Virus record (IMG/VR): IMGVR_UViG_3300045988_131275
Coordinates: 116,170 to 180,169 of that record
Length of the DNA stretch: 64,000 nucleotides
Reading direction: 5' to 3' (one strand)
From: a virus
A model generated the notes under the pieces. The model ran no database searches and was not told the origin of the DNA. It saw only the letters and a program-made list of their open reading frames with translations. How positions within the stretch are numbered: position 1 is the first letter of the stretch; each line of letters begins with the position of its first letter. Shown one piece after another: positions 10,809 through 46,823 of the stretch. Position numbers and translations under genes: made by a program.

Positions 10809-10835
10809 ACAATACCTCTTAAAACCTAATATAAT

Positions 10836-11557: not shown

Positions 11558-11605
11558 ATTTTCTCCTTTTCTGAAATCATCATTTCATTAACCTAAATAA
11601 TGTTC

Positions 11606-11968: not shown

Positions 11969-12004
11969 GTTGTTCTCCTCTATCTTTCTAATAAAACTCT
12001 TGTT

Positions 12005-12352: not shown

Positions 12353-12370
12353 CTATTGATTCTCTGTTAA

Positions 12371-12407
12371 TTAAAACAGGTGATACCCTTTGACAAGTAC
12401 CACCTGT
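12371..12407 (-). terminator. intrinsic terminator
   Basis: Hairpin ACAGGTG (12376-12382) / CACCTGT (12401-12407). The reverse strand continues TTTTAA. Confidence 0.5.
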
Positions 12408-12419
12408 AAGTATGTAATA

Positions 12420-13163: not shown

Positions 13164-13235
13164 AATTGATTCCTCCTGTACTTGCGTGTTATTTAGTTCT
13201 CAATGTGCATTTGTAAAATATTGGAAATTTTCTGA

Positions 13236-13264
13236 TTGACTAACCAGTAAGAATTAGATATACT
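13236..13264 (+). promoter_or_regulatory. sigmaA-type promoter (TTGACT-17-TATACT) for the second antisense sRNA
   Basis: TTGACT at 13236-13241, 17-nt spacer, TATACT at 13259-13264. Confidence 0.6.
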
Positions 13265-13270
13265 AGAATA

Positions 13271-13341
13271 GTCAATCCGCTTTGGCGATTGATGTCTGGA
13301 AGAGGTTTGTTGCTGTGGTAGGTGCTAACCTCTTCTTTTTT
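13271..13341 (+). ncRNA. candidate ~70-nt antisense sRNA (sar-like), paralogous arrangement to 5782..5857
   Basis: Hairpin GAAGAGGTT (13299-13307) / AACCTCTTC (13327-13335), then T6. Shares CGCTTTGG with the first sRNA. Overlaps the stop of RHH gene 13340..13522. Confidence 0.5.
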
Positions 13342-13522
13342 ATTTTTCCTGTTGATATATGTCGTAGGAAATATTCTTCTTGATCTGAATTTTTCCATCA
13401 ACAAAACCTTGCATTAATACTTCTATAGCTTCATTGAGTTTAAAACCTTGTTTCTTGCATTCAGCCTTAAAAGCGTTCTGTATAGTTTCCTCAACAGGAG
13501 TTGCAAAATTCTTTCTTGCCAT
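13340..13522 (-). CDS. ribbon-helix-helix (Arc/CopG-like) DNA-binding protein
   Basis: MARKNFATPVEETIQNAFKAECKKQGFKLNEAIEVLMQGF is a paralog of 5851..6018. Confidence 0.7.
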   Translation of the reverse strand: MARKNFATPVEETIQNAFKAECKKQGFKLNEAIEVLMQGFVDGKIQIKKNISYDIYQQEK

Positions 13523-13546
13523 TGCTTTATCTCCTTTACAATTAGT

Positions 13547-13575
13547 ATATTATCATTATTTTACTTATTTGTCAA
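13547..13575 (-). promoter_or_regulatory. sigmaA-type promoter (TTGACA-17-TAATAT) driving RHH-Ant cassette 2
   Basis: Reverse strand: TTGACA (13575-13570), 17-nt spacer, TAATAT (13552-13547). Confidence 0.6.
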
Positions 13576-13669
13576 CTAGCTTTTTATTATTTCTTTACTT
13601 ATTTCCAATTCATAAGCACTATCGCAACTGCTAAAATTTCCATTCTAGCAGCCACTAACTACAAATGAA

Positions 13670-13945
13670 TCATGCTATATGTAATCCAGATACTTTCAAT
13701 AACGCTTCAAATGCATTGATTAATTCCATACGCATTCTTCTTTTAGAAGTAACACCTTTTCCACCGATTCTTATACTATCGTCCATGCGTGTTTTATATT
13801 TCTTTCCTTTAGAATCCGTAAACATATCGACTTCTTCTATTGTTCCATTATCTAATTGCATCCGCATAAATGTATGTGTATATGGTTTATTACCATCTGT
13901 ATACTCTATAAAGCTTGCCAAATTCTGCATATGTATTTCCTCCAT
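13670..13945 (-). CDS. hypothetical protein
   Basis: ORF track. Its start overlaps the micro-ORF stop (TAATG). Confidence 0.6.
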   Translation of the reverse strand: MEEIHMQNLASFIEYTDGNKPYTHTFMRMQLDNGTIEEVDMFTDSKGKKYKTRMDDSIRIGGKGVTSKRRMRMELINAFEALLKVSGLHIA

Positions 13946-14013
13946 TAACTAAATATCGCAATAATAATCAATATTGCTAGACCAATTCCCAAACAATAAC
14001 CTAATTCATACAT
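13945..14013 (-). CDS. 22-aa hydrophobic micro-protein (family member C)
   Basis: GAGGAAG SD, then ATG at 14013. MYELGYCLGIGLAILIIIAIFS. Confidence 0.5.
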   Translation of the reverse strand: MYELGYCLGIGLAILIIIAIFS

Positions 14014-14014
14014 C

Positions 14015-14452
14015 TCAATCTTCCTCTCTAATCTCATAATCACTTCCAAGAAAATGATCTATTGTATATGTTTCCACTTCTTCAATCCAGTCAGATTCTT
14101 CATATTTTCCATTTTCAAAATCAATTGCCATCTTTGCAATTTCCGTTGTCAATGCCATACTATCAACTTTTTCACTGCTTACAGGATATACAGTTCCATC
14201 TTGAACCATATCGTTATAGCATTGCATCATAAGTGCTGATGTTTCTGATATTTTCCGTTCACGTTCTGTTCTTTCTCCAAAACGAATCATTTTTAAAATT
14301 TCCAGAATCCTATTAGTATATCCATGAATACCTTCGTACATTAACCAACAATCAAGAATTTCATATTCTGTATATTTCTGTTTTATTTCCTCTAATGTTG
14401 TATAATTTGTTTCATTTATACAATTGAAGGCTTCAAGCAAAGATTTTTCCAT
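14015..14452 (-). CDS. hypothetical protein
   Basis: ORF track, leftward array. Confidence 0.6.
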   Translation of the reverse strand: MEKSLLEAFNCINETNYTTLEEIKQKYTEYEILDCWLMYEGIHGYTNRILEILKMIRFGERTERERKISETSALMMQCYNDMVQDGTVYPVSSEKVDSMALTTEIAKMAIDFENGKYEESDWIEEVETYTIDHFLGSDYEIREED

Positions 14453-14476
14453 CGTTCATTCCTCCTGTTTTTTGGT

Positions 14477-14513
14477 ATAAAAATAGCCTTATAGATTTAT
14501 TCTCTACAAGGCT
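14477..14513 (-). terminator. intrinsic terminator
   Basis: Hairpin AGCCTT..AAGGCT (14485-14513). The reverse strand continues ATTTTTAT. Confidence 0.5.
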
Positions 14514-14656
14514 ACATAGTTTCCATTATTCTATTAATTACAAAAGCCCTCAAATATTTCTATTCAAGAGCTTATCATGGGAGTTAATACCATACACATC
14601 ATTCTCAAACATCACTCCCGTATACTCTGTAAGTATATATAAATAATAGTATGTTG

Positions 14657-15199
14657 TCAATCAAAGATATATCTGATATTATCCAGATCAATCATAGTTC
14701 CATCGTCATTAATCCCTCTGAAAAAATTAAACGAGTCACCTTTCATTAACTTTGCTGTTCTAGCAAACTTTTCTAAAATTTCCTTTGAAGCTTTATCATG
14801 CCCGTTTTCTGTCCAACAATCTGTTTCAATTCCACACCAACAAACTATTATATTTTTTGGAATACTTACATAAGGCTTAAATATTTCTGGAATTAAAATT
14901 CTCTTAATTTGTGAAGGAGTCACTTTCTCTGTGATATATTTTATGTAATCATCTTTATGTATTTCAATATCTGACATTTCATGCTCTGTTGCTGAACAAT
15001 CTACTTCCAATAAAGCTGCGCCGTAGTTAGGAAATGAGTTTTGATTTTTAATGGGTGAAAATAGATATACAACAGATGTGCTATTATCACTACGTTTTCC
15101 ATCACTCCAATTATTATTTCCGCATTCATTCATGCTCAAAATTCCATTCTTACAAATGGATTCTAAGTCACAAATATCTACATTCTTATATAATATCAT
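14657..15199 (-). CDS. hypothetical protein
   Basis: ORF track. N-terminus ILYKNVDICDLESICKNGILS is only faintly reminiscent of ART/DarT-type openings, so no function is called. Confidence 0.6.
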   Translation of the reverse strand: MILYKNVDICDLESICKNGILSMNECGNNNWSDGKRSDNSTSVVYLFSPIKNQNSFPNYGAALLEVDCSATEHEMSDIEIHKDDYIKYITEKVTPSQIKRILIPEIFKPYVSIPKNIIVCWCGIETDCWTENGHDKASKEILEKFARTAKLMKGDSFNFFRGINDDGTMIDLDNIRYIFD

Positions 15200-15262
15200 A
15201 AGATTAACTCCTTCCGTTTTCTTCTATTATATCATTCCTATTTCCAATTTGAAAGATACATT

Positions 15263-15556
15263 TCATGGTATATAATCAAATTCCGCTAAACCGCCACTAT
15301 CCATCACATAAGCCTGTACAGCTTCGGTATATGTTCCATCAAAATTTCCGTTCTCTGTATCATAATCACTAACATGATCTCCAATTTCTTCTTCATAGTA
15401 TGAAAATATCATTGTGATTAAATTTTCCATTGATGTTTTTGGTGTATATCCCTGTTCTCTAATCCAGATTGCCATATAATCATAATCACATAATTTTTCT
15501 TTTGGATATGTACTATAATCTTTTTCCTCTGTCCATCTTCCGTATGTGTCTACCAT
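15263..15556 (-). CDS. hypothetical acidic protein
   Basis: ORF track, leftward array. Confidence 0.6.
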   Translation of the reverse strand: MVDTYGRWTEEKDYSTYPKEKLCDYDYMAIWIREQGYTPKTSMENLITMIFSYYEEEIGDHVSDYDTENGNFDGTYTEAVQAYVMDSGGLAEFDYIP

Positions 15557-15557
15557 T

Positions 15558-15821
15558 CTAACAAACCTCCTTCAAAAATATGAATGTACAATACTGAGTA
15601 TTATTTTTCTGATATCGTTTTAAATCTTTTATTGTTCCGTTTCCAAAATTAAAAGCACTTTTAATTCTTTCTGGTGTCCAACATAAAAACCAACCATCAT
15701 TATATTGTTTCTGTATTGTCTTTTTTGTTCCGTTGATTTCAATAGCTATACAATCATCTGGAATTTCATGTTTCCATTTCTCTAAATTAATCATTTTAAT
15801 TTCCTCCCTATGCACAAACAC
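15558..15821 (-). CDS. hypothetical protein
   Basis: ORF track, leftward array. Confidence 0.55.
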   Translation of the reverse strand: MFVHREEIKMINLEKWKHEIPDDCIAIEINGTKKTIQKQYNDGWFLCWTPERIKSAFNFGNGTIKDLKRYQKNNTQYCTFIFLKEVC

Positions 15822-16314
15822 AACAATCTAATACGTTCTTTAAACTTTCCAACTGATTCTCTGATTCTGTTCTTGCGTATTCATCCACATAGAACTGTTT
15901 TCTTTCCTGTCTGCATTCTTCCAGAATACCCTGTAACTTTATATCTGTACTGTTAATAATAACTATTTCCGCAGCTTCCCAATCCTCTACATCTTGCAAT
16001 TCTCTTTCCGCTAAATAAACGTTATATAAGTCACGTTCCTGTAACTTCTGCTCTATATCATTGTCAGGGATAGGATCATCAATCCAATTCTGCATACAGA
16101 AATGTAACAATTCTATAGATTTTCCATTGTATGTAGACATATGGAAACTATTTCCTCCGGCAATGTCATACCATGTGGTTATTTCTCCATTTGTATTTAT
16201 TTCCACAATATAGCGCAACTGAGTATTCTCAATTGCTTCTTTATACGCTTCGATTCCAGTGTTGATAATCTGTTCTTCATTCCGTTCTATTAACTCTAAC
16301 CACTCATTCATCAT
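15808..16314 (-). CDS. hypothetical acidic protein
   Basis: ORF track, leftward array. Confidence 0.6.
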   Translation of the reverse strand: MMNEWLELIERNEEQIINTGIEAYKEAIENTQLRYIVEINTNGEITTWYDIAGGNSFHMSTYNGKSIELLHFCMQNWIDDPIPDNDIEQKLQERDLYNVYLAERELQDVEDWEAAEIVIINSTDIKLQGILEECRQERKQFYVDEYARTESENQLESLKNVLDCCVCA

Positions 16315-31426: not shown

Positions 31427-31651
31427 TGGTGTGAGCAGGTTGTCACATAAGCTATTGTCCATCAACGTGTCCTAACTATATTCCTGAGAATGTAACTCAC
31501 TACTGCTCTATTTGCGGTAATGGAATTTACAACGGAGAAGAATATATTAGGAACGATGACGACGATTATGCTCATTGGGAATGTATTGATTATAAGAAAG
31601 ACTTAGCTGAATGGCTAGGTTATGAGATTAGAATTATGGAGGAAGATTAAA

Positions 31652-32518
31652 ATGTTAACTGGGAAAATAGGAAACGAAATCATAAATTGTTATGATGGAA
31701 CACACTCAAAAGAACAGTTAAAAAAATGGACTAAGAAGAAAATTATTTTATGTCCTGTATGTAATAGACCATATGAATATTGTCATGGTAAAGTTAAAAC
31801 GCCATATTTTAGGCATATGGATAAAGAAAAATGTGAAGATAAATATTCTGAATCAGAAACAGAAGAACATATTCAAGGTAAACGAGATTTATATGAATGG
31901 ATCAAGAAACAAAACGGTGTTACAAATGCAATATTAGAAGGATGGATACCAGAAACAAAACAACGTCCTGATATTATATTTGAGTATAATAATAAACGAT
32001 ATGTAATTGAATATCAGTGCTCTCCTATTGCTTCTGAATATTTTGAAAGACATGAATTATATCAAGCAGTTGGGATATGTGATATTTGGATTTGTGGAAC
32101 TGAAAAGTATCTTGGATCAAATAAAAGAATAAATACATTAGAAAAAATGTCACATATTTATTATGATTTTAAAAATAAATTTTTATACGTTATTGATGAT
32201 ATTTCTGAGACGACATTTAAGGAAATAGGAAAACTTAATTCATGGAGAGGATATTTAAAAACTAAATATAAACAACAAAAATATTTTAAAAGGACGTTTC
32301 ATGTAATGATGAATATATTTGATTATACTGTTGGATATAAAAATTATATTAAAATCAAAAACATTTCAAATAGTTATTATTGTTGCGGATCTCATTATCC
32401 ATCTCCAACAGGTAGACCTTCGAATAAATATCCGTATCCAGTAAGAGATTATGCATATTTAAGGAATTACTCTTATGCAACTTGTTATAAATTATCCAAT
32501 ATTAAATTAAAAATGTAA
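31652..32518 (+). CDS. CoiA-like competence-family nuclease
   Basis: ORF track 31622..32518. ATG at 31652 follows GGAGGAAG. CPVCNRPY...YFRHM...SETEEHIQGKRDLYEWI...QRPDIIFEYNNKRYVIEYQCSPI matches the recalled CoiA pattern (CP.C...HF.H...ES..H...K..l....rpDv....aiEiQ.S.i). Confidence 0.6.
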   Translation: MLTGKIGNEIINCYDGTHSKEQLKKWTKKKIILCPVCNRPYEYCHGKVKTPYFRHMDKEKCEDKYSESETEEHIQGKRDLYEWIKKQNGVTNAILEGWIPETKQRPDIIFEYNNKRYVIEYQCSPIASEYFERHELYQAVGICDIWICGTEKYLGSNKRINTLEKMSHIYYDFKNKFLYVIDDISETTFKEIGKLNSWRGYLKTKYKQQKYFKRTFHVMMNIFDYTVGYKNYIKIKNISNSYYCCGSHYPSPTGRPSNKYPYPVRDYAYLRNYSYATCYKLSNIKLKM

Positions 32519-32534
32519 TTGGAGGTATCATAAT

Positions 32535-35303
32535 TTGAGTAAACATTTGACATCACAAAGATATGTATTTAAAATTCATTCTTCAAGACTTAGAAGAAAA
32601 AAATGGAATTTAAAATTGACACCAAATCAAGCAAGAGAAAATCAAGAGCTTATTGCTTTAAGCGAAAGTCAAATAATGAGATTTATTGATGAGATAAATA
32701 ATATCACAGATACAGAACTTAAAATTTCAAATATTAAATCTGAAATCAAGAAATTAAAATTTGAGAAAAATTTATCTATATCAAGACCTAAAATCAAGAA
32801 GTTATATAATGATTTAGATAAATATCAATTCAAAAAGGATTATGTGTGTGTTGTAATTGATAAGGTTAAAGATTTTGAATACATTTATAAACATGGCTTT
32901 AAAATCAACAATGTTACATATAGATGGTTACTTGGAACTACTGGTGGAGTAAAAAACAATACTGTAGTATTTGTAAATGAAAAATTACTACCTGAATTAA
33001 AAAAACGTATAGATAACGGTCGAAATTTACAAAAAGAATTTGCTCCTGCAAAACTTGAAGCTTATATTGCTCTGGTATGCAGCTCTTCTATTCCTGTATC
33101 AATGCCAAATGGGATCGTTGTTGTTCATGATTGTATTACAAAATTCAAATCAGATGTAATTGAATTAGATGATACTGGACTTGATCAACCAAGTATGAAA
33201 TTTATTAAAAATAAAGATGTAGAGCTAAACGATAGTGACGGATATGGACTTGCTATGCCATCTCTTATGGAACGTTGGGGATATGAAATCGGAGAAGATT
33301 TTTTATTACCTGGTTGTGTTATTAGAAATTCATTTTGTAAAGGTGCTGTATTTCCTATTGATTTTCAGAAGTTTGCACAAGATCATGGTTTTACAGAAAT
33401 AACAGATGTGTGGGGAAATACATATGACATTAATGAAATAGAACTCATTTTAACAGAGTCGATGCTAAAATTGTGGGACTCCTATTCTTCTCTTGAATCA
33501 TATCTTGAAAATTGTGAAAAGAATCATTACACATTTGCAATTACAAAAGCTTCGGAAGAAGAATTAGAAAATGTAAGAACAATGAATTACCAGTTTTTAC
33601 AAAGTTATGATTTTACAGATGAACAAATTGATGAATTAATCGCACCAACTGTAAATGAAATTAAAGAAATTTTAGATGATGATTATAGAAAAACAATATT
33701 ATACACAAAAGGTATAGGACTTAATGAGAAAAATATTCAACATTTAGATAGTTCATTTGCAACAGCATTGATGATTGAACCTGAAATGGCTAATGATCCA
33801 TTTATCAAATCCCAGATTCACTCCATGATTAGAAAGCGTATTGATGAAGCTAAAGTTGGGGTTTTAAAAGTTCCTGCAAATTATTCCTTAGTATCAGGAG
33901 ATCCGTATTCTCTATGTCAGTCCATGTTTGGAATGAAAGTTACTGGACTATTAAAAGCTGGACAAGTCTATTCTAAATATTGGATTGATAAAGGTGTTGA
34001 TAAAATTGTAAGTTTTCGTGCGCCAATGACCTCGCATAATAATATCAGGCTTCTTGAAGTTGTACATAATGAAACAATGGATGAATTTTATCAATATATG
34101 ACAACTCCTACTATTTTTAATAGTTGGGATACATGTGCGGAAGCGATGAATGGTTTTGATAAAGACGGAGATTGTGTAATTAATACTTCATTTGATCTAT
34201 TAGTAAAAAATACTAAACGATTACCTGCTATTGTATGTGTGCAAAGAAAAGCTCCAAAATGTATTCCTACAGATGATGATATTATGAGATCAAATATTAA
34301 TAGTTTTGGAAATGCCGTAGGTGGAGTAACAAATAAAATTACATCAATGTTTGAAGTTAAATCGAATTTCGCACAAGGAACAAGAGAATATAATTTGCTC
34401 GATTATAGAATCAAATGTGGTCAGTTATACCAGCAAAATGCGATTGATAAAACTAAAGGGATTGAGGCGAAACCAATGCCTGATAATTGGTATAACTGGA
34501 TTTCAAATAAACTTACAAAAGCAAAAGACTCTCACCAGAAAAAAGAATTTTGGATCAACCGAAAAATTATCGCAGATAAAAAGCCTTATTTTATGCAATA
34601 TATTTATCCATCAGAACGCATAGAATTAAATAATTATCGTAAGAAAAATAATGAAAAGTGTCTTATGAGATTTAGAATTTCTCTTGATGAATTAATGTAC
34701 AAAGAGAATAAATCAAGAGAAGAAAATAAATTTATTAAGTGTTATTATGATCGAATGCCACTCGGTATGGGTAAATGTACAATTAATAAAATTTGTTGGA
34801 GAATTGAAGAAAAGTTTGATAACCTTGTTTACTCTTCTAATGAAAATTTTGATTATTCTATTATGAAGAGTAATGTAACATATTCGGATGCGGTGTATAA
34901 GAAAATTAAAAAAATATATGAAACTTATAGAAAAGAAATATCTAGTTACATGCAATATGCTAAATCCGAAAGGCTTAAATCAGATGAACGTCAAATTCAA
35001 AAATATATACTAAAAGAACAATTTAAAGAAAAATGCCTATTAGAGTGTCCTAATGAAGATGAGTTATGTAATATTGTTTTAGATTTATGTTATTCAAAAT
35101 CTAAATATAGTAAACAATTTGCATGGGATATTTGTGGTGAAGTATTTATACAGAATTTATTAAGACGTAAGAATTATAAAATCTCATATCCAACACTTGA
35201 TGATAATGGAAATATTGAGTATTTAGGCATGAAATTTTCTATGAAAGAAACTGAAATTAAAGTAAATGTAGATTTGGAGGACAATGAATGCCAGTTGTAT
35301 TAA
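32535..35303 (+). CDS. YonO / cellular-RdRP-like single-subunit (two double-psi beta-barrel) RNA polymerase
   Basis: Collinear signature blocks: VTYRWLLGTTGGVKNNTVVFV, NDSDGYGLAMPSL, VSFRAPMTSHNNIRLLEVV and FDKDGD (DxDGD metal site, nt 34158-34172). TTG start after GGAGGT. Confidence 0.7.
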   Translation: MSKHLTSQRYVFKIHSSRLRRKKWNLKLTPNQARENQELIALSESQIMRFIDEINNITDTELKISNIKSEIKKLKFEKNLSISRPKIKKLYNDLDKYQFKKDYVCVVIDKVKDFEYIYKHGFKINNVTYRWLLGTTGGVKNNTVVFVNEKLLPELKKRIDNGRNLQKEFAPAKLEAYIALVCSSSIPVSMPNGIVVVHDCITKFKSDVIELDDTGLDQPSMKFIKNKDVELNDSDGYGLAMPSLMERWGYEIGEDFLLPGCVIRNSFCKGAVFPIDFQKFAQDHGFTEITDVWGNTYDINEIELILTESMLKLWDSYSSLESYLENCEKNHYTFAITKASEEELENVRTMNYQFLQSYDFTDEQIDELIAPTVNEIKEILDDDYRKTILYTKGIGLNEKNIQHLDSSFATALMIEPEMANDPFIKSQIHSMIRKRIDEAKVGVLKVPANYSLVSGDPYSLCQSMFGMKVTGLLKAGQVYSKYWIDKGVDKIVSFRAPMTSHNNIRLLEVVHNETMDEFYQYMTTPTIFNSWDTCAEAMNGFDKDGDCVINTSFDLLVKNTKRLPAIVCVQRKAPKCIPTDDDIMRSNINSFGNAVGGVTNKITSMFEVKSNFAQGTREYNLLDYRIKCGQLYQQNAIDKTKGIEAKPMPDNWYNWISNKLTKAKDSHQKKEFWINRKIIADKKPYFMQYIYPSERIELNNYRKKNNEKCLMRFRISLDELMYKENKSREENKFIKCYYDRMPLGMGKCTINKICWRIEEKFDNLVYSSNENFDYSIMKSNVTYSDAVYKKIKKIYETYRKEISSYMQYAKSERLKSDERQIQKYILKEQFKEKCLLECPNEDELCNIVLDLCYSKSKYSKQFAWDICGEVFIQNLLRRKNYKISYPTLDDNGNIEYLGMKFSMKETEIKVNVDLEDNECQLY

Positions 35304-36040
35304 ATGAAATAAAACAAGCAGAAACAATATTAGAGAAAGGGGAAGTTGGTAATAAACCAACTTCCACCTTATTCTTACTATCTAAATATTATCGTCAAAA
35401 ATTAAAATTATCCGAGAATAAAACTTCTGAAAAACTTAATGAGTTTATGGATAACAATTATAAAAATTATAATCCTGTATTATGGGAAGATATAATTGAA
35501 GATATTTCTCGAAAAGGCAAAAAATATGAATTAAGGAATATTGAGCATATTGGAATTACTCAATCTGAATTAGATACTATTGAATCTACAAAAACGAAGA
35601 ATCATAAAAAATTACTATTTACAATGTTATGTTTTGCAAAATTATACAATATTATATCTATAAATAACAATAATTGGATCAATTCAGATATAAAAGAAAT
35701 ATTTAAAACTGCAAGAGTGATCGTTAAACATAGAGATGATAAATTCTTATTGCTAAATGATTTGGAATCGAATGGTTATATTTCTTTTTCTAGTAAGAAT
35801 GATAATCTTAATATGAAAATTAATTTTATTGATAATGTTAATGATTCAATATTATATATTACTGATTTTAGAGAATTAGGGTATGAATATCTTAATTATA
35901 CAAAAGATGGTAATTTTACAAGATGTAAAATTTGTAACAGATTAATAAGAAAAACAAGTAAAAATATTCAGTATTGTGCAGAATGTAAAGAAGATAAACG
36001 GCTTGAGACAAAAAGAAAATGGTGGAGTAATAAAGAATAA
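35288..36040 (+). CDS. hypothetical protein with C-terminal zinc ribbon
   Basis: ORF track. CKICNRLIRKTSKNIQYCAECK. Overlaps the end of the RNAP gene. Confidence 0.6.
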   Translation: MPVVLNEIKQAETILEKGEVGNKPTSTLFLLSKYYRQKLKLSENKTSEKLNEFMDNNYKNYNPVLWEDIIEDISRKGKKYELRNIEHIGITQSELDTIESTKTKNHKKLLFTMLCFAKLYNIISINNNNWINSDIKEIFKTARVIVKHRDDKFLLLNDLESNGYISFSSKNDNLNMKINFIDNVNDSILYITDFRELGYEYLNYTKDGNFTRCKICNRLIRKTSKNIQYCAECKEDKRLETKRKWWSNKE

Positions 36041-36222
36041 TTTGTAAAAATAATTTATGCACTAGACTTTTTTAAATGTCCGCAAACCCAGTATTTACAA
36101 GGGTTTCCGACACTATTGCCAATTTTCTTATTATGTAATAGATATATACGTGGATACATTGAAAATACAATGAAAGACGAAATATTTTAATAAAATAATC
36201 AATCAAAAAGGAGAATCAGTAC

Positions 36223-36834
36223 ATGATTTTAAAAGAATCATATCGCTATCAGAACTTTCTTACAAATCTTATTAGCAGCGCACAGACATATCTTGGAAAT
36301 GTATCATTCGTCATGACAACAACTCAAAAGCATATGAAAAGCAAAGCTAATCCAGAAGCATCTGATGATGATTTGGAAGTTCCAAAATCTTATAATGTAG
36401 ATTTTACGCCAACTCAACTGGTGGATTTTCTTATGGATGCAATTCAAGAAAAACAAAAGTTGTCTGATGCTATCACAGAAGCTAAGAAAAATACTGAAAT
36501 TGATTTAGATTCTTCTTATGCCATGAATAAAACAAAACAAAGTCTTGCTAAAGTTTTCAAGACAATGGCTGGCAGAAAAGCTACTGATACTGAAAAGCAA
36601 GGTCGAGATTATAGATTCAATGTCAATCAAGAGCAGGTTGCTTATACATACACTATCAAAGAAGTTACTCAACTGGATTATGATAGAAATGTAGTTAAAG
36701 CACTTGCAAAGAAATTAGCAAAAGAAACAGATGAAGTTTCAACTAAACTTGATCAGCTTGAGCTTACTACTCTTGTTAATCATGAACCAAAGTATGATAT
36801 GAATGATACATTAGAGGATATTGTGGTGAAGTAA
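36223..36834 (+). CDS. hypothetical protein
   Basis: ORF track. AAGGAGAA SD. Confidence 0.6.
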   Translation: MILKESYRYQNFLTNLISSAQTYLGNVSFVMTTTQKHMKSKANPEASDDDLEVPKSYNVDFTPTQLVDFLMDAIQEKQKLSDAITEAKKNTEIDLDSSYAMNKTKQSLAKVFKTMAGRKATDTEKQGRDYRFNVNQEQVAYTYTIKEVTQLDYDRNVVKALAKKLAKETDEVSTKLDQLELTTLVNHEPKYDMNDTLEDIVVK

Positions 36835-36842
36835 AATTCACC

Positions 36843-36856
36843 ACTACTCTTCTATT
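36843..36856 (+). repeat. ACTACTCTTCTATT copy of the dispersed intergenic motif
   Basis: Follows hairpin GTGGTGAA (36823-36830) / TTCACCAC (36837-36844) right after the stop of 36223..36834. Confidence 0.4.
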
Positions 36857-37459
36857 CGGATATTCACAAGAGACTAAGATTGATTTATGATGGTCAATCG
36901 GTTCAGATGCAGATGAACTGTGATGCTGCGAGGTAGGATGATAATACCAGAATTATCATAATTAAAATCTAAAAAAAGAATATGTCATACATATTATTAT
37001 AGATATTATTGGGTAAGTATAATTTATACTTAACATTGGAAAAATTCAAGATGATTCGTTAATCAACATTACGTTTCATTAATGCGAAAATGCAAGATTT
37101 TATTATTTCGGTATTTCAACAATTTGTAAATTTGATAAAACAATATACGTTTCGCTAATATTAATTCTTAAAAGAATATATCGGGCGAAAAGCCTAAACA
37201 TATAAAGGAACGAATTATTCAAATTCGATTGAAACATTTGTGTTTCAGATGAAAATTAAAAGATTTTGTGCAATTTTTGTACAGATTTTTAGCAAATTGG
37301 TTGAGATTATGAAGAAATCTTAGTCTGTTATGAATATTTGAATAAAAATACAGTTATAATTAGTTTGGAGACTAATTGGTATAATAATTGGCGGTTGCAC
37401 TATTATTTCCCCTTTCTTTAAAATGGTGTGATCGCTGATTTTCTGTTTATAAAAAATAA

Positions 37460-37533
37460 TGCAGAGTGGAGCAGTCTGGAAGCTCGTCTGGCTCATACCC
37501 AGAAGGTCATAGGTTCAAATCCTATCTCTGCTA
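37460..37533 (+). tRNA. tRNA-Met (anticodon CAU) with initiator-like features
   Basis: Cloverleaf: acceptor (U)GCAGAG/CUCUGC(U), U8, D stem GAGC/GCUC, anticodon arm UCUGG-CUCAUAC-CCAGA, T arm AUAGG-UUCAAAU-CCUAU, A73. No encoded CCA. U1xU72 mismatch and A11:U24. Confidence 0.8.
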
Positions 37534-37546
37534 TTACTCTCCTACT
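37533..37546 (+). repeat. ATTACTCTCCTACT copy of the dispersed motif abutting the tRNA 3' end
   Basis: TCTCC pairs with GGAGA 5 nt downstream (37547-37551). Confidence 0.35.
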
Positions 37547-37602
37547 TGGAGAAATAAATGCAAAGGACGTGAATTGTTATAAAAGCAATTAGTAAAAAAG
37601 AA

Positions 37603-37758
37603 ATGGAATATCTTATGAAGAAAGGTTTTAAATTTCATGAAGATATTTTTAAGACATATAGTGGTAAGAATAAATACTACTATAGAGAATGTAATGCTAT
37701 TAATAAGGCATTAGATGATTACCATAATGGATTAAATGTTGTGGAATATGTTAAGTAA
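37603..37758 (+). CDS. small hypothetical protein (51 aa)
   Basis: Not in track. MEYLMKKGFKFHEDIFKTYSGKNKYYYRECNAINKALDDYHNGLNVVEYVK. Weak SD. Confidence 0.35.
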   Translation: MEYLMKKGFKFHEDIFKTYSGKNKYYYRECNAINKALDDYHNGLNVVEYVK

Positions 37759-37793
37759 TTAAGAAACAAAAATATATTATGAAAGGTGGTAAA

Positions 37794-38041
37794 ATGCCAT
37801 CAGTACTTATTTTTACGATACAAATGCTCTGCTATTATTACAGAAAGATGTATTAAAAGAAAAATTTTATATTAGTTCTACATCACTTCAAGAACTAGAA
37901 CACATCAAAGTCTCACGTAACAAAGAAGAACAAGTTAAATATGCAGCACGTAAAATTCTACATATACTTGATGAAAACGAATCTTCATACGGTGTTATCG
38001 TTACCGATTCTAAGATTATAGATATTATCAATCAACATGGA
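37794..38041 (+). pseudogene. PIN-domain portion of a PIN-PhoH gene, out of frame with its ATG (1-nt discrepancy in a T5 run)
   Basis: AAAGGTGG SD, then ATG at 37794. The PIN-like frame (YFYDTNALLLLQKDV...SLQELEHIK..) is continuous with PhoH but has no start. One extra T at 37810-37814 would fuse ATG, PIN and PhoH. Confidence 0.55.
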
Positions 38042-39025
38042 TTGGAAAATACACCAGATAATCAAATATGTGCGTGTGCTTCGACAATTGAAGATGTCAT
38101 TTTTATTACAAATGACATTGCATGTAAATCAATTGCAAGACACATCTTTGGATTAAGAACAGAAACAGTTAAAGAAGAAGAAAAAGATTTATATACTGGT
38201 TTTATTGAAACGTCATTATCTGAAACAGAAATGGCTTATTTTTATGAACATTTACAAGAAAATATTTATGATTTATTAGACAATCAATATCTTGTATTAA
38301 AAGATAATGATAATAAAATTGTGGATATTATGGTTTGGCGTGATGAAATGTATCAGAATGTTAAATTCCCTACAATTCGTTCAAACTATTTTGGAAATGT
38401 AAAACCTTTAAATGGTGATGTTTTTCAACAAATGGCTTTAAATAGTTTTAGTAATAATCAAATTACTATGATTAAAGGCGCAGCTGGTACAGGAAAATCA
38501 TATTTAGCTGTTGGATATTTAATGTGGTTATTAGAGAAACGAAAAATCGAAAAAATTATTGTATTTTGTAATACTGTTGCTACTGCTAATTCTGCAAAGC
38601 TTGGGTATTACCCAGGGACAAAGGATGAGAAGTTGTTAGATTCATCAATCGGTAACATGTTATCTGCTAAACTTGGGGACAGTTTTGGACTTGAAGAAAT
38701 GATGGCAAAAGGCAGAATCCAACTCTTGCCAATGTCTGACATTAGAGGTTTTGATACTAATGGAATGTGTGCAGGTATTTATATTACAGAAGCGCAAAAC
38801 ATGGATATATCATTAATGAAACTTGCCTTACAAAGAATTGGAGAAGACTCAATTTGTATCATAGATGGTGATTACAACGCACAAGTTGATTTATCTCAAT
38901 ATGCAGGTTCTAATAATGGTATGCGTAGAATGTCAGAAGTTTTTAGAGGTCAAGACTTCTACGGAGAAGTAGAATTGCAAAATATTTATAGAAGCAAAAT
39001 TGCGAAAATCGCTGAAAATATGTGA
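38042..39025 (+). CDS. phoH: PhoH-like ATPase domain (C-terminal part of a PIN-PhoH/YlaK-like protein)
   Basis: Walker A MIKGAAGTGKSYLA, Walker B-like ICIIDGDYNAQVDL. The same frame is open upstream to 37794. Confidence 0.8.
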   Translation: MENTPDNQICACASTIEDVIFITNDIACKSIARHIFGLRTETVKEEEKDLYTGFIETSLSETEMAYFYEHLQENIYDLLDNQYLVLKDNDNKIVDIMVWRDEMYQNVKFPTIRSNYFGNVKPLNGDVFQQMALNSFSNNQITMIKGAAGTGKSYLAVGYLMWLLEKRKIEKIIVFCNTVATANSAKLGYYPGTKDEKLLDSSIGNMLSAKLGDSFGLEEMMAKGRIQLLPMSDIRGFDTNGMCAGIYITEAQNMDISLMKLALQRIGEDSICIIDGDYNAQVDLSQYAGSNNGMRRMSEVFRGQDFYGEVELQNIYRSKIAKIAENM

Positions 39026-39060
39026 TTAAAAATATTACGAAAATCGAGGTATTATAGCCT

Positions 39061-39690
39061 ATGAATAAAAGAAATATGGAATTATCGGATAAAGAATATG
39101 ATGAACTTGCTGAAAAATTAGATGCGGAGCAGGTCATTCTTGAAGATACGGATTTGATTAATAATCAATTTGAAAATCTTCTAAAGCATAGAATTATTCT
39201 TATTAACGACATTATTAGTAACCTTACAATTGATAAAATTGTTATGCCACTGTTACAGATGGATAATGACGGAACAGGTGAGAAAATTACTATTTATCTG
39301 AATAGTAATGGCGGATCTACATTTGACGGGTTGGTCTTATGTAATATTATTGAAAGATTAAAAACACCAACGGAAGTTATTGTGCTTGGATATGCATATT
39401 CTATGGGAAGTATTATTCTCATGTCTGGTAAAAACAATCCAAACGTAACTAGAAAATGTTATCCATTTAGTACAGCTCTTATTCATGGTGGTTCTGCTTA
39501 TATTGGTGGAACTTCCAGTCAAGTAAAAGATTATTTTAAATTCAATGAAAAATTTGAGAAACGTATTGCAGATTTTATTGTATCACATACAAATCTCTCA
39601 GAAGATGACTATGCCGCTATCGAGAGATATGAAGCATATATGGATTCTGATGAAATGTTAGAAAAAGGTTTAGTAGACGAAATTATCTAG
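39061..39690 (+). CDS. ClpP-family serine protease
   Basis: ITIYLNSNGGSTFDGL, GYAYSMGSIIL (Ser) and ALIHGG (His) are collinear with ClpP (INSPGG...G.AaSmg...imiHQP). Confidence 0.75.
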   Translation: MNKRNMELSDKEYDELAEKLDAEQVILEDTDLINNQFENLLKHRIILINDIISNLTIDKIVMPLLQMDNDGTGEKITIYLNSNGGSTFDGLVLCNIIERLKTPTEVIVLGYAYSMGSIILMSGKNNPNVTRKCYPFSTALIHGGSAYIGGTSSQVKDYFKFNEKFEKRIADFIVSHTNLSEDDYAAIERYEAYMDSDEMLEKGLVDEII

Positions 39691-39720
39691 GAAGAGTGGT
39701 TATTACTACTCTTCTATTTT
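39691..39720 (+). terminator. intrinsic terminator containing motif copy ACTACTCTTCTATT (39705-39718)
   Basis: GAAGAGTGGT (39691-39700) / ACTACTCTTC (39705-39714), loop TATT, then TATTTTT. Confidence 0.65.
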
Positions 39721-39753
39721 TATGAAAATATATAGATTCAAGGAGAAGAAAAC

Positions 39754-39959: not shown

Positions 39960-41177
39960 GTGGTGGATGATATAAAGTCATATAAAAGATTAGACGGTGA
40001 AACACCAGAAGAATTAATTTATAGAGTATGTTCCGATAAGGATTCTATCGGATCTTGGAATGATGTTGCTGTAATTTTGAATACATTATTAAATCAAGAT
40101 TATGGAGAATCTACATACCGTAAAAAATTTCAAGCATTTAATAAAATGTTAACTGCAAATAGAAAGAAATTTTATGATTCAAGTAAACAGTTAGATGAAT
40201 TGAATAAGAAAATTAAAGAATATCGTCAAGAACAGATTAAACTTCAAACTCTTAATATTGAAAGAAATCGTTTAGATAGAAGTGAATCTCGACAAGAACT
40301 GTATTATCAATATGTTGGAAATGTTATTAATACACTACCATTACCAGAATTTAAAGATATTATAAGTTATGAAGACAATGGTTCTCGTGAATATATTCTA
40401 AATCTCAGCGACTTGCATTACGGTGCTTCATTCGTAAGCGAAAATAATATTTATTCACCAGAAATCACAAGAGAAAGATTATTCTATCTTACATCTTATA
40501 TGATTGATTTTATTAAATCACATAAGCTACATAAATTACATGTTTTATGTACAGGTGATGTATTACAAGGACTTATTCATTTAACTGATCTAAAAATAAA
40601 CGATAGTACAGTCGTAAAATCATGTGTGGAAATTTGTAGATTGATTGCACAAATGTTAAATACATTATCTGCTTATGTACAGATTGAATATTATCATACA
40701 CCATCAGCTAATCATACACAGATACGTGCATTAGGTGCGAAAGCAAATGAGTTAATGGATGAAGATATGGAATATCTGATTGGAAATTATATTAAAGATT
40801 TATGTGCCAATAACAATCGTATTATTGTTCATCTTGCAGAAGAAGGAAAACAATATGTAGCATTTAGTATCAATGAGTATAATATTGTTGCCATGCATGG
40901 ACACCAGATTAAAAACATTGAATCAGCAATTAAAGATATTTCTATGATGCGTAGAGAATTTGTAGATATTTTAATTTTAGGACATTATCACGCAGGAAAA
41001 CAAATAACTGTTGGTGAAGGATGTTGTGCAGATTGTGAAGTACTAATTAATCCATCATTTGTAGGAAGTGATCCATATTCTGATTCACTGATGAAAGGTA
41101 GCAAGGCTGCTGTAAATATATATGGTATACACAAAATCTACGGACATGATGAAACGCACAAAGTAATTTTAAATTAG
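39960..41177 (+). CDS. calcineurin-like metallophosphoesterase
   Basis: LSDLHYG, CTGDVLQG, VAMHGHQ and LGHYHAG motifs in the canonical order. GTG start. N-terminal ~130 aa is coiled-coil-like. Confidence 0.7.
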   Translation: MVDDIKSYKRLDGETPEELIYRVCSDKDSIGSWNDVAVILNTLLNQDYGESTYRKKFQAFNKMLTANRKKFYDSSKQLDELNKKIKEYRQEQIKLQTLNIERNRLDRSESRQELYYQYVGNVINTLPLPEFKDIISYEDNGSREYILNLSDLHYGASFVSENNIYSPEITRERLFYLTSYMIDFIKSHKLHKLHVLCTGDVLQGLIHLTDLKINDSTVVKSCVEICRLIAQMLNTLSAYVQIEYYHTPSANHTQIRALGAKANELMDEDMEYLIGNYIKDLCANNNRIIVHLAEEGKQYVAFSINEYNIVAMHGHQIKNIESAIKDISMMRREFVDILILGHYHAGKQITVGEGCCADCEVLINPSFVGSDPYSDSLMKGSKAAVNIYGIHKIYGHDETHKVILN

Positions 41178-41294: not shown

Positions 41295-41570
41295 ATGACA
41301 AAAATTGAATTTGTAGATGCAGTCGCAAAAGAAACAGAATGGACAAAGAAAGATTCTGAGGAAGCTATTAATGCTGTGGTTAAAGTAATCACCAATGCTT
41401 TAGTAGCAGGTGAGAAACTTTCTATTGTTGGATTTGGAACATTTGAAGTTGTTGAAAGAGCAGCAAGAGAAGGGCGCAATCCTCAAACTGGCGAATCGCT
41501 TATGATCAAAGCGTGTAAAACAGCAAAGTTTAAACCAGGTAAAGCCTTCAAGGAACTTATCAATGCGTAA
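41295..41570 (+). CDS. hup: HU/IHF-family histone-like DNA-binding protein
   Basis: MTKIEFVDAVAKET...GEKLSIVGFGTFEVVERAAREGRNPQTGESLMIKACKTAKFKPGKAFKE is a near-textbook HU sequence. Confidence 0.9.
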   Translation: MTKIEFVDAVAKETEWTKKDSEEAINAVVKVITNALVAGEKLSIVGFGTFEVVERAAREGRNPQTGESLMIKACKTAKFKPGKAFKELINA

Positions 41571-42401: not shown

Positions 42402-43442
42402 GTGAGATTATTGGATGGTAAAATTGCAGATAGATCTGTTGAAATAACAGATGAAGAATGGCAAACAGTAAATGAATTTAATAGAGAAATGGTTGAGGAT
42501 TACCTTGATAATCAAGCTGACCTTTCTGTGAAAACTTTGCCAGCATATAAATCTGGATTAAGGATTTTCTTTACTTGGGTTAGGGACAATCTCAAGGACA
42601 AGAATTTTACAGATATTAAAAAGAAAGAATTTCAAAAATATCTTAATTGGTTAACCAAAAGAGGTTTTTCTGATTCTGGTATTAAATTTAAAAAATCTGC
42701 TGTAAGTACATTTTGCAATTATGTAATGATGATGTATGAGGAAGAATATCCTACATTTCGTAATTTCACAATTGGGCTTAAAGTAGTACAGACAGGATAT
42801 GTTCATGAAAAAGTTCCACTTACGCCAGATGAATATATTAATTTATGTCAAGAACTTGAAAAACGTGAAGAATGGCAAATGTTAGCATATCTTACATTTT
42901 CTTACAGTACAGGATGTAGACGTGCAGAAGCTAGACAATTACTCAAGGAAGTCATTGATTATTCTGCAAATGAAAAGAAAATCAAAGTTCTGGATGAAGA
43001 TGGACATGAATATGAAACTATTTCAAAGCAGTATTTGACTCACACTATTCGTTGCAAAGGTGCATCTCTTGTGGGTAAACCACGTAAACTTAAATTTGGT
43101 GATGATGCAATGCAATGGTTAAAGAAATGGATTGAAGTGCGTGGTGAAGATGACTGTCCTTATATGTTTGTAATTAAATCTAAAGATGGAAAAGAAGTTA
43201 GACAAGTGAGTGAAAGCACTTTTAATAATTGGTGTCAAGGATTATTTACACAAATTGTTGGACGTAGGGTGCATCCTCACCTATTCAGGGAGTCAAGAGC
43301 TACAAACCTTGTTGTGTTTCAGCATAAAGCACCAGAGGTAGCTCAGAAATTACTAGGACATAATCAAGTCACTACAACTTTAGATCATTATATTATTCGT
43401 AATGATGAAAATGATGAGTCTGATGAAGCATTTACTGATTGA
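42402..43442 (+). CDS. tyrosine site-specific recombinase (XerC/D-like, second copy in window)
   Basis: N-terminal SAM-like domain. TGCRRAEARQL (Arg), HPHLFRESRATNL (HxxR), LLGHNQVTTTLDHYI (Tyr). GTG start. Confidence 0.85.
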   Translation: MRLLDGKIADRSVEITDEEWQTVNEFNREMVEDYLDNQADLSVKTLPAYKSGLRIFFTWVRDNLKDKNFTDIKKKEFQKYLNWLTKRGFSDSGIKFKKSAVSTFCNYVMMMYEEEYPTFRNFTIGLKVVQTGYVHEKVPLTPDEYINLCQELEKREEWQMLAYLTFSYSTGCRRAEARQLLKEVIDYSANEKKIKVLDEDGHEYETISKQYLTHTIRCKGASLVGKPRKLKFGDDAMQWLKKWIEVRGEDDCPYMFVIKSKDGKEVRQVSESTFNNWCQGLFTQIVGRRVHPHLFRESRATNLVVFQHKAPEVAQKLLGHNQVTTTLDHYIIRNDENDESDEAFTD

Positions 43443-43641: not shown

Positions 43642-43718
43642 TAAAAGTAAACTTGTCCTTTACAATATTTTCCAATTGTGATAATGTAAAAATATCAAAA
43701 AATTGGAGGTGTTATATA

Positions 43719-44695
43719 TGGAGTTCAACAGAAAGACACAAACTGTCAAGTCATTTGCAAGAGATATGAAAAATAAAAAATACAATATGTTTCATAAACT
43801 GCAACGTAAAGAAGGTCAATGGAAGAATTATGAGCAGAGTTTATTAATTGACTCAATGCTTCGCAACTATCCTGTTGATCCTATTCGTTCAGAAGAAAAA
43901 GAAGATAAAATCAGATATGTATTTGATGGGGTTCAGCGTAGCACAACGATCAGAGATTTCTTAGCTGATGGTTTCAAATTAAATCAAAAGCTGAAACCAG
44001 TGGCAATTGAAGGCACTGTATATAACATTGCAGGTAAGAAATTCTCACAGTTGGATGAAGCTGTCCAGGATAAAATCAATGATTATGAAATGATACAGTA
44101 TATTTTTTCTGATTGTACAGATGAAGATATTCGTGAGATGTTCCGTAGACAGAATGGTGGTAAACCATTATCAAACACTCAAAAAAGAAAGTCATTAGAG
44201 AGTGATGAAGTTAGTGCAATTATCTTTGATGTTGCGAATCATCCATTCTTTGCAAAAGTGTTATCACCAACACAGTTAAAAAAAGATGTTGCGAATGATA
44301 TTGTGCGCCAGACGCTTATGCTGATTAACACTACAGATGATAATGATTTCACATCATTTAGAGCAAAAGATATTGATACATTTGTGGAATGGTATAATGA
44401 GCATGTTGATGAGAAAGATATTATTATATTGAAATCTGCTCTGTCATTCTTAGATGAAAAATTTGCAGAGAAACTTAACCTCAAGTCAACTTCTCTTCCG
44501 ATGATGTTATATGCTGCATATACATGTGTGAAGAATGAAAAGGACTTTGACGAATTTGTAAATATTGTACAGGCATTTGTAAACAGCTATGGTGATAATA
44601 TGGATTATATTCAGTATTGCACCAGTGGTACATCTTCTGCTCAGTCTGTCCAAGGAAGATTTAACTATTGGAAGAATCTTTGCAAGGGATTATAA
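43719..44695 (+). CDS. DUF262 / ParB-like nuclease-domain protein
   Basis: ORF track 43703..44695. ATG at 43719 follows GGAGGTG. YVFDGVQRSTTIRDF (DGQQR-type motif) and FRRQNGGKPLS. Confidence 0.65.
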
Positions 44696-45830: not shown

Positions 45831-45866
45831 CTAAAGATGTTTGCGAGTGGAAAGCAAGAAATTAGA

Positions 45867-46823
45867 ATGGTAGGAATTTATAAAATAACAAATTTACAGA
45901 ATAATAAAGTTTATATTGGACAATCAATAAATATTCAAGAACGTTGGAAACAACATAAAAGTGAACTAAATTGTCACAGACATCAAAATGATCATTTACA
46001 AAGAGCTTGGGATATATATGGTAAAGATAATTTTAAGTTTGAAATTATTTGTGAATGTTCAAAAGATGAACTAGATGATAAAGAAATATTTTACATTTCA
46101 GAATACAATTCTATTAATAGAGACTACGGTTATAATATTCAAAATGGTGGAGCATCTAGTCCATCAGCACAAGAAACTATTGAGAAATTACGTGGATGTG
46201 GTTCAGACTTGTCAAAAGATGATGTTTATAGGATTAAAATTTGTATGTATCTTTTAATGGATAGAAAAGAAATTTCAAATAAATATAATGTATCTCCAAA
46301 GGTATTAATAGCGATTTCACAAGGTAAAAATTTTGATTACATTCTTCCAGAATTAAATGAATCTATACATAACTTAAAACAAAATTTAATTGATGAGCGA
46401 AATCAAAAAATTGTTTTACTATACGATAACGGTAATTCAATTACTGAAATATGTAAAATTATGGATTTATCAGAAAGTATTGTTGAAAAAGCAATATATA
46501 AATATAGACAACCAAAATCTAAGGAATCTCAGATGAAAAAATATAATAAAATTTTTGAATTACATAATCAAGGAATAAACAATTATCAGATTTCTAAATT
46601 AGTATATGTATCACCAAGTACCGTAAAACGTTATCTTTCTGGTGAACAACATCCAATGAATAAACCTGGTAATTTAAAGGTTACAGATGATGTAAAAGAT
46701 AAAATTCTACAATTATATTTTAAAGACAGCTTAGGTTCAGTAGAAATCAGCAAACAATTAGATATGAGTAAGACAACTGTAATGAGTGTCATTAATCAAT
46801 ATAAAAATAAAATAAGCGCATAA
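45867..46823 (+). CDS. GIY-YIG homing endonuclease with C-terminal HTH repeats
   Basis: ORF track 45837..46823. MVGIYKITNLQNNKVYIGQSINIQERWKQHKSEL is a canonical GIY-YIG opening. Repeated HTH-like segments lie in the C-terminal half. Confidence 0.85.
   Translation: MVGIYKITNLQNNKVYIGQSINIQERWKQHKSELNCHRHQNDHLQRAWDIYGKDNFKFEIICECSKDELDDKEIFYISEYNSINRDYGYNIQNGGASSPSAQETIEKLRGCGSDLSKDDVYRIKICMYLLMDRKEISNKYNVSPKVLIAISQGKNFDYILPELNESIHNLKQNLIDERNQKIVLLYDNGNSITEICKIMDLSESIVEKAIYKYRQPKSKESQMKKYNKIFELHNQGINNYQISKLVYVSPSTVKRYLSGEQHPMNKPGNLKVTDDVKDKILQLYFKDSLGSVEISKQLDMSKTTVMSVINQYKNKISA

Follow-up and report, generated by a model that had tools for sequence, protein, structure and literature searches.

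A YonO-family two-barrel RNA polymerase gene and its zinc-ribbon neighbour in a phage genome

We analysed a 64,000-nucleotide (nt) stretch of the IMG/VR virus record IMGVR_UViG_3300045988_131275 (positions 116,170 to 180,169; hereafter the window). It contains a 922-amino-acid (aa) open reading frame (ORF), which a prediction made from the letters alone had proposed to be a phage two-barrel RNA polymerase resembling YonO of phage SPbeta and the cellular RNA-dependent RNA polymerases (RdRPs). We conclude that the ORF is a genuine YonO-family RNA polymerase with its active site between two double-psi beta-barrels, because the sequence, the fold, the invariant residues and the order of the genes agree. 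As for its function, we consider it likely that the enzyme is a YonO-type, most likely DNA-dependent, transcriptase of late genes, probably working together with the product of the next gene, a zinc-ribbon protein that we call ZnR.

Sequence, catalytic residues and fold of the polymerase

The gene encodes a single polypeptide of ~105 kDa with an N-terminus, MSKHLTSQRY, that is common to its homologs (features and coordinates are collected in Table 1). The original prediction had listed four collinear blocks, and all four are present, at aa 127-147, 232-244, 492-510 and 541-546; the DKDGD motif lies exactly where it had been placed, at nt 34158-34172. A fifth block, VIRNSFCKG, was absent from that list. 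All catalytic blocks are contained in the one ORF, in the order found in YonO and in QDE-1.

We examined conservation in an alignment of 45 sequences, which fall into two clades with a mutual identity of only 24-25%. Within block 1, Y129 is invariant and G137 and F146 are conserved in at least 90% of the sequences. Invariance extends to D235, G236 and G238 in block 2, to R264, K269 and G270 in the VIRNSFCKG block, to R495 and P497 in block 3, to D542, D544, G545 and D546 in the metal-binding block (aligned to FDNDGD of YonO), and to I637, D638 and K641 in the QQNAIDKTKG block. Because each block aligns with its SPbeta YonO counterpart and the key residues are invariant across two such distant clades, the blocks are not chance resemblances.

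Eight residues are invariant in every two-barrel polymerase: D709, R738, K743, R962, P964, D1007, D1009 and D1011 in QDE-1 (Ruprich-Robert and Thuriaux, PMC2919709). All eight are present in the window protein (D235, R264, K269, R495, P497, D542, D544 and D546) and are invariant in both of our homolog alignments (A1 and A2). Their spacings are close to those of QDE-1: 29 versus 29 residues from D235 to R264, 5 versus 5 from R264 to K269, and 47 versus 45 from R495 to D542. The equivalences were assigned by motif and spacing rather than by residue-level structural alignment. On this basis D235 would be the fourth catalytic aspartate, equivalent to QDE-1 D709, and R264 and K269 of the first barrel would correspond to R738 and K743. 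By the same assignment, the first barrel supplies D235, R264 and K269 and the second R495, P497 and the triad D542/D544/D546.

Sequence searches led to YonO directly. A tblastn search against phage genomes matched SPbeta yonO with E=7e-29, and BLASTP against SPbeta YonO gave E=2e-35 with 27% identity over aa 121-732. The Pfam RdRP family PF05183, to which the original prediction had pointed, was reached through relatives and not by the window protein itself: the 82%-identical relative P0002 scored 45.4 bits against a cut-off of 23.8 (aa 112-556), and many close relatives carry a precomputed PF05183 match. Single-sequence searches of the window polymerase against Pfam and the PDB sequences returned noise only. 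NCBIfam holds no model for the window polymerase, YonO or ZnR, and PHROGs assigns the window polymerase to three families of 'unknown function'.

We then compared an AlphaFold2 (AF2) model of the polymerase (predicted local distance difference test score, pLDDT, 71.7; predicted template-modelling score, pTM, 0.59) with known structures. The top 21 Foldseek matches in the PDB were all RDR2 or QDE-1 (E=2e-14 to 4e-10, probability 1.00, ~760-940 aligned columns), and the significant matches comprised maize and Arabidopsis RDR2 and Neurospora and Thielavia QDE-1 and no others. These PF05183 enzymes match nearly the full chain, with template-modelling (TM) scores of 0.36-0.47, and share the DxDGD, R-x-P, D and R..K residues. 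They differ in having only 12-15% identity to the window protein, extra head and neck domains and no zinc-ribbon partner, and in being eukaryotic enzymes of RNA silencing that act on RNA or single-stranded DNA templates. Bacterial beta' chains scored E of 0.6 or worse with TM below 0.1; there was no T7-like right-hand fold among the Foldseek matches and no match to the Pfam RNA_pol domains. Among the predicted viral structures of BFVD, the best matches were phage 'RdRP' proteins (E=3.5e-35 and 7e-32). The Thermus phage P23-45 protein A7XX94 was a weak but significant match (E=5e-4). Comparison with QDE-1 and with the virion polymerases of crAss-like phages had been proposed; QDE-1 was matched, and no crAss-like virion polymerase was among the significant PDB matches. 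The P23-45 and crAss-like enzymes belong to the same superfamily but are much more distant, and differ in genomic role (virion-packaged, or early/middle transcription). The two-barrel fold is called from these whole-model matches, not from viewing the barrels residue by residue. Together, the RDR2/QDE-1 matches and the alignment of the triad to that of YonO place the DKDGD motif in a catalytic double-psi barrel fold rather than in a non-catalytic region of an unrelated family.

Both the polymerase and ZnR genes are under purifying selection, with ratios of nonsynonymous to synonymous substitution rates (dN/dS) of 0.08-0.10 and 0.13-0.27, respectively. Since these ratios are low and the ribosome-binding sites strong, we regard both as real, expressed genes. 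That the polymerase could be a decaying or catalytically dead relic is suggested by the empty single-sequence searches, but this is very improbable: all eight catalytic residues are intact, dN/dS is low, the ORF is uninterrupted even though relatives tolerate catalytic-site introns that need splicing, and 99%-identical copies recur on several IMG/VR viral contigs of 134-145 kb and in 161 database members.

In relatives, insertions interrupt the gene at two points only, both in catalytic motifs: 317-880 nt between D544 and G545, and ~1.1 kb after D638 (loci L015, L018 and L054). The window gene is free of them. The L015 insert codes for a 214-aa GIY-YIG-like homing-endonuclease ORF, and many database 'proteins' and two PHROGs begin or end at the insertion sites. 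These segments are probably mobile introns. Rfam at its gathering score detected no intron in them; its permissive mode gave a 16-bit group I match (E=0.12) in L017 and nothing in L015.

ZnR and the zinc ribbon

The ZnR gene begins before the polymerase gene ends, and its GGAGG ribosome-binding site within the polymerase 3' end suggests translational coupling. The protein consists of a helical N-domain, a winged-helix-like domain, a Cys4 zinc ribbon and a C-terminal helix, and its AF2 model is confident (pLDDT 89, pTM 0.81). Partial matches in the PDB were consistently to winged-helix DNA-binding domains, such as ORC2-WH (probability 0.96, TM 0.54), Fur/PerR and TubR, so that ZnR probably carries such a domain as modelled.

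For the locus counts we used 80 related IMG/VR viral loci with polymerase identities from 47% to 99%. A ZnR homolog directly follows the polymerase in all 80. The pair is also found in Clostridium phage c-st, where the homolog is CST177 (30% identical, E=4e-31), and in Enterocloster phage PMBT24, where it is the ORF after the polymerase (E=2e-10). ZnR is absent from a related phage whose polymerase allele is of a different type. The ZnR family has 578 members, none of them named and none with a Pfam domain. The original prediction had called the polymerase single-subunit; this stands in that both barrels lie in one chain, but it may oversimplify, as ZnR is encoded next in every related locus examined.

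The zinc ribbon itself connects ZnR to YonO. SPbeta YonO ends in a Cys4 zinc ribbon (about aa 786-839), whereas the window polymerase ends in a beta-hairpin module and the ribbon sits on the separate ZnR protein, which has no SPbeta counterpart. This arrangement, with a dedicated partner gene instead of a fused ribbon, sets the window enzyme apart from the type enzyme, and it differs between the clades: of 103 YonO-clade proteins, 102 have a CxxC..CxxC pattern within their last 80 aa, versus none of 115 window-clade polymerases. A ZnR profile matched 63 YonO-clade proteins at E<1e-3 (at most 15 aa from the C-terminus in 61 of them) and none of 120 window-clade polymerases. When 8,282 ORF segments were searched with a profile of the ribbon only, ZnR orthologs came first, then SPbeta yonO (E=1.5e-5), and the next, unrelated ORF at E=0.065. 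Judged by sequence, the C-terminal tail of Bacillus YonO and the Cys4 ribbon plus tail of ZnR are homologs. In a single database representative, P0336 (1,173 aa), polymerase and ZnR are joined completely into one chain (E=7.5e-19). The c-st annotation implies that ZnR is a detached C-terminal part of YonO. We rejected this, as only the last ~55 residues (ribbon and tail) match; YonO aa 736-790 align to the C-terminal helices of the window polymerase itself, and the ZnR body is without a homolog in SPbeta.

Strict pairing together with ribbon fusion and fission, a classic form of indirect evidence, argues that polymerase and ZnR act together. With moderate confidence, we suggest that the window clade uses a two-protein enzyme in which ZnR is a candidate DNA-binding or initiation accessory factor. 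More tentatively, the polymerases of this large Clostridial branch might be two-protein enzymes with ZnR as a dedicated subunit for DNA binding, initiation or promoter specificity, Bacillus YonO having kept only the ribbon, in cis; we offer this version as a possibility that we hold more doubtful than probable.

Gene order, templates and targets

Downstream, the strand of the window polymerase carries homologs of SPbeta yonJ, yonN, yomM, yonG, yonF and yonD, with their order kept. A YonJ-like gene, an early member of this SPbeta-like late cluster, follows the polymerase-ZnR pair in 68 of the 80 loci. An HU-like protein, the YonN homolog, matches the NCBIfam HU/IHF models at E of ~1e-22, with HU found in 49 of the loci. 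CoiA is linked to the polymerase in 16 loci, all of the close clade. The polymerase thus lies, as had been described, between a CoiA-like nuclease and a zinc-ribbon protein, and near HU. Likewise, the window appears to hold neither a T7-like RNA polymerase, for which there is no room since no other ORF exceeds 572 aa, nor a recognisable sigma factor, Pfam finding no sigma domain in the 20 larger ORFs in a scan that was not exhaustive.

SPbeta YonO is a strictly DNA-dependent, highly processive RNA polymerase whose aspartate triad is essential, the 3D>3N mutant being inactive (Forrest et al. 2017, PMC5467207). It is needed for plaque formation and transcribes 37 late genes, starting upstream of yonK and of an unannotated non-coding RNA (ncRNA); its promoter and a possible need for additional factors were left open in that study (PMC5467207). 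By homology and synteny with SPbeta, we infer a similar role for the window enzyme. In a large temperate phage of gut Clostridia, SPbeta-like and ~130-180 kb in size, the polymerase would be made early or mid-way during lytic growth. Independently of the host polymerase, it would then transcribe the same-strand cluster of late (structural and lysis) genes downstream, probably working with ZnR, a candidate accessory subunit for DNA binding or initiation. The inferred parts of this scheme are the template specificity, the late-gene targets and the physical or functional interaction with ZnR.

An enzyme that copies or amplifies RNA, for instance in regulation or counter-defence, instead of transcribing phage DNA, would fit the name 'RdRP' of the relatives' Pfam family, the best structural matches (RDR2 and QDE-1) and the labels of the PMBT24 and Perkons homologs, which are recorded as RNA-dependent RNA polymerases. 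However, these labels are transfers of the Pfam name and not the outcome of experiments, and the PDB match list includes QDE-1 complexes with DNA templates (7y7r and 7y7t). Moreover, YonO, the only characterised phage member, is far closer (E=2e-35) and strongly prefers DNA templates (PMC5467207), and the window gene heads an SPbeta-like late cluster. We judge an RNA-dependent enzyme improbable.

The slot directly after the polymerase, or after the polymerase-ZnR pair, repeatedly holds tRNAs and giant structured RNAs in relatives, including ROOL in three of them (290-321 bits) and GOLLD in MT835469.1 (172.6 bits). A DNA-dependent enzyme could therefore have its main targets not in the late structural genes but in this slot, or could make replication primers. 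The window slot contains a tRNA-Met and a strongly folding, ORF-free 620-nt stretch; the SPbeta YonO transcript begins upstream of an ncRNA; and genes of DNA metabolism (CoiA, PhoH and a deaminase-like ORF) lie nearby. Against such targets, the 37 late genes of SPbeta depend on YonO and the same late genes are syntenic in the window, and the content of the slot (ncRNA, tRNA, ORFs) differs from one locus to another, against a constant set of polymerase, ZnR and YonJ-like gene. We consider main targets of this kind unlikely.

Some features of the slot are worth recording in their own right. The 620-nt stretch, just 5' of the tRNA-Met, has a predicted folding energy of -149.5 kcal/mol (z=-5.4 versus 20 shuffles), and against two copies that are 83-86% identical (L005 and L082) 176 predicted pairs are kept, 7 of them compensatory. 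It matches no Rfam family at E<=1, so ROOL and GOLLD were rejected for the window's gap; it is possibly an unclassified structured RNA in the ROOL/GOLLD slot. The yonN-yonK gap of SPbeta, site of the YonO transcript start, contains a DUF3800-VIII RNA motif. A second window tRNA, near the window's start, was left without identity by ARAGORN, which gave an odd two-base anticodon, 'ta'; Rfam confirms it as a tRNA (56 bits).

Transcription of the late genes by a DNA-dependent YonO-family enzyme, probably with ZnR, is the function that we favour, and several observations weigh against it or against parts of it. The template preference is extrapolated from an enzyme with 27% identity, and the proteins that match best in structure bear the name RNA-dependent. 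The window polymerase itself has no Pfam RdRP match even at E<=10, probably an effect of the HMMER speed filters, and the 45-sequence family profile has no matches in the PDB sequences. Confidence in the AF2 model is moderate, with pLDDT below 50 in two catalytic loops (aa 496-502 and 538-545). On the ZnR side, the whole chain has no significant fold match in the PDB (best E=0.05), and its N-terminal body has no homolog in SPbeta. Zinc ribbons are short, their similarity being due in part to Cys spacing, and P0336, the sole full fusion, could be an artefact produced by a frameshift where ORFs overlap. Finally, a sigma-70 scan and a comparison of intergenic motifs found no promoter for the window polymerase, and a phage whose polymerase is only 24% identical has the same DNA directly 5' of its YonK/YonJ-like genes, which makes allele-specific promoter recognition at this site doubtful. 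Separately, the contrast between no Pfam match for the window protein and 45 bits for its close relative P0002 shows how erratic the automated annotation of the family is.

The promoter searches did return one conserved element. The sigma-70 consensus scan gave fewer sites than shuffled sequence (100 versus 129), and no anchor for comparison was available from SPbeta, where the YonO transcription start was published as a coordinate without sequence (PMC5467207). In 30 of 46 unique intergenic sequences, which belong to a clade of ~50% identity (L019-L081, e.g. L025, L029 and L035), the ZnR stop codon is followed by a cassette consisting of a TGTTGACAAAAAT-like box, a long hairpin with covarying arms and a TTTGATGRG box. 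The cassette lies between the polymerase operon and the YonK/YonJ-like genes, and the hairpin is strong in 19 of the 30. It is probably an ordinary terminator, possibly with a promoter of host type behind it. All that the window shows is a weaker hairpin at ~36077-36113 and three TTGATG-box matches, each inside an ORF.

A swap of the whole polymerase cassette was seen between otherwise near-identical backbones. The 176-kb phage MT835469.1 has flanking proteins 88-99% identical to those of the window, including a Cys-rich 78-aa ORF, the deaminase-like ORF, the YonJ-like gene and downstream genes, and the hairpin and leader 5' of the YonK-like ORF are nearly identical. The polymerase in the same spot is only 24% identical (956 aa, E=4e-20). 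It belongs to the same superfamily but carries the metal motif DFDSD (in GADFDSD) instead of DKDGD, has neither ZnR nor CoiA beside it, and is followed by tRNAs and the GOLLD RNA.

Mobile elements were also noted. A TnpB/IS605-family element, with a 350-aa ORF matching Pfam OrfB_IS605 and a Cas12f1-like TNB domain, lies in the minus-strand gene block of the window. Several mobile- or defence-type genes are interspersed with the late genes of SPbeta type; they encode a YomM homolog that resembles tyrosine integrases, a protein with a GmrSD_N domain, a GIY-YIG homing endonuclease and, in one ORF, a homing-endonuclease segment. Phage c-st has a RAGATH-18 RNA motif (64 bits) downstream of its YonO-like gene pair and just 5' of the HU gene CST174.

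Table 1. Features of the polymerase locus in the window, and corresponding positions in relatives
Feature	Position	Strand	Details
YonO-family two-barrel RNA polymerase gene	32535..35303	+	922 aa, TTG start, uninterrupted
GGAGG ribosome-binding site of polymerase	32521..32525	+	9 nt 5' of TTG, read in sequence
Block 1, VTYRWLLGTTGGVKNNTVVFV	32913..32975	+	aa 127-147; aligned to matching SPbeta YonO segment
Block 2, NDSDGYGLAMPSL	33228..33266	+	aa 232-244; holds D235
VIRNSFCKG, fifth block	33318..33344	+	aa 262-270; basic pair R264/K269
Block 3, VSFRAPMTSHNNIRLLEVV	34008..34064	+	aa 492-510; R495-x-P497, equivalent to QDE-1 R962/P964
FDKDGD	34155..34172	+	aa 541-546; DxDGD Mg2+-binding triad D542/D544/D546
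QQNAIDKTKG	34431..34460	+	aa 633-642; conserved I637-D638-xx-K641 block
ZnR gene	35288..36040	+	250 aa; overlaps polymerase stop codon by 16 nt
GGAGG ribosome-binding site of ZnR	35276..35280	+	within polymerase gene 3' end, read in sequence
ZnR Cys4 zinc ribbon	35924..35986	+	C213, C216, C230, C233, all invariant
CoiA-like nuclease gene	31622..32518	+	directly upstream; Pfam CoiA_nuc E=4.4e-29
ORF-free 620-nt stretch	36840-37459	+	
tRNA-Met	37460-37533	+	
Hairpin and leader 5' of YonK-like ORF	39690-39753		
YonJ homolog	39960..41177	+	early gene of SPbeta-like late cluster; 36% identical to SPbeta YonJ, E=1e-69
HU-like DNA-binding protein (YonN homolog)	41295..41567	+	50.5% identical to SPbeta YonN
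Mobile/defence-type genes among late genes	42402-43442, 43703-44695, 45837-46823, 59048-60343	+	
tRNA	66-140	-	
TnpB/IS605-family element	8469-9521	-	
Swapped cassette	~31640-39680		versus L004 (MT835469.1 reverse complement) 8490-16060
Insertions in relatives	L002 7672-7988; L017 8633-9000; L054 8633-9514 and 9812-10927; L015 6707-7827; L018 ~8915-10030		
RNA slot in relatives	L007 10909-11511; L015 9521-10119; L018 11726-12321; L004 12365-12855; L001 10006-10071		
RAGATH-18 motif in phage c-st	L002 11965-12025		

A known lineage with a separate ribbon gene

The suggestion that the polymerase represents a new lineage did not survive comparison with existing records. YonO-like proteins of Firmicute phages and genomes were catalogued in 2010 (PMC2919709, which also lists the c-st homolog), and the c-st homolog was cited as a YonO-like single-subunit enzyme by Iyer et al. 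2021 (PMC7824862). The c-st protein CST179 (42% identical) is labelled a YonO homolog in its deposited record and has been so named since 2005, while the records of Enterocloster phage PMBT24 and Perkons label their homologs as RNA-dependent RNA polymerases. An exhaustive search puts the YonO-like family at 1,896 clusters at 50% identity with E<=1e-3, 552 of them with E<=1e-30. Homologs 82% identical to the window polymerase occur in Clostridium sp. genomes, among them those of Marseille-P7770 and MCC344, and the closest GenBank record of the window is a 176-kb 'Bacteriophage sp.' from human faeces. With the c-st and PMBT24 orthologs already labelled and a large family on record, the gene belongs to the known YonO-type kind.

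Among the closest known systems, the polymerases of c-st (CST179/CST178) and PMBT24 are of the window's own clade, with 42% and 40% identity along 94-99% of their length, and share the polymerase-ZnR pair and a downstream HU gene. In c-st the gene is split, with 317 nt inserted exactly at the D544/G545 junction and insertion sequence (IS) elements around it, whereas the window gene is intact. SPbeta YonO is homologous across the polymerase body and has the same five catalytic blocks and eight invariant residues. It is likewise carried by a large temperate siphovirus-type phage of Firmicutes, and HU (yonN), yonJ and the late genes yonG/F/D lie 3' of it on its strand. The window protein, only 27% identical to it, is 83 aa longer and unlike it over the N-terminal 120 aa, and in the window CoiA, PhoH, ClpP-like and tRNA genes lie in between.

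No known relatives of cellular RNA polymerases are smaller than the YonO-type enzymes, which serve as a model for the ancestral polymerase. The window gene adds no lineage to this picture; it documents a very abundant gut-phage branch. The recurrence of ROOL/GOLLD-type RNAs beside YonO-type polymerases may be a link that merits testing. ZnR, by its strict pairing, the fusion and fission of the ribbon and the whole-cassette swap between near-identical backbones, is a testable candidate for the question of how YonO-type enzymes initiate. If the two-protein enzyme is real, ZnR would be the 'additional factor' that the 2017 study of YonO left open, and the first known initiation factor for a minimal two-barrel polymerase. 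As such a factor, ZnR would make compact, rifampicin-independent polymerases more usable as orthogonal transcription tools.

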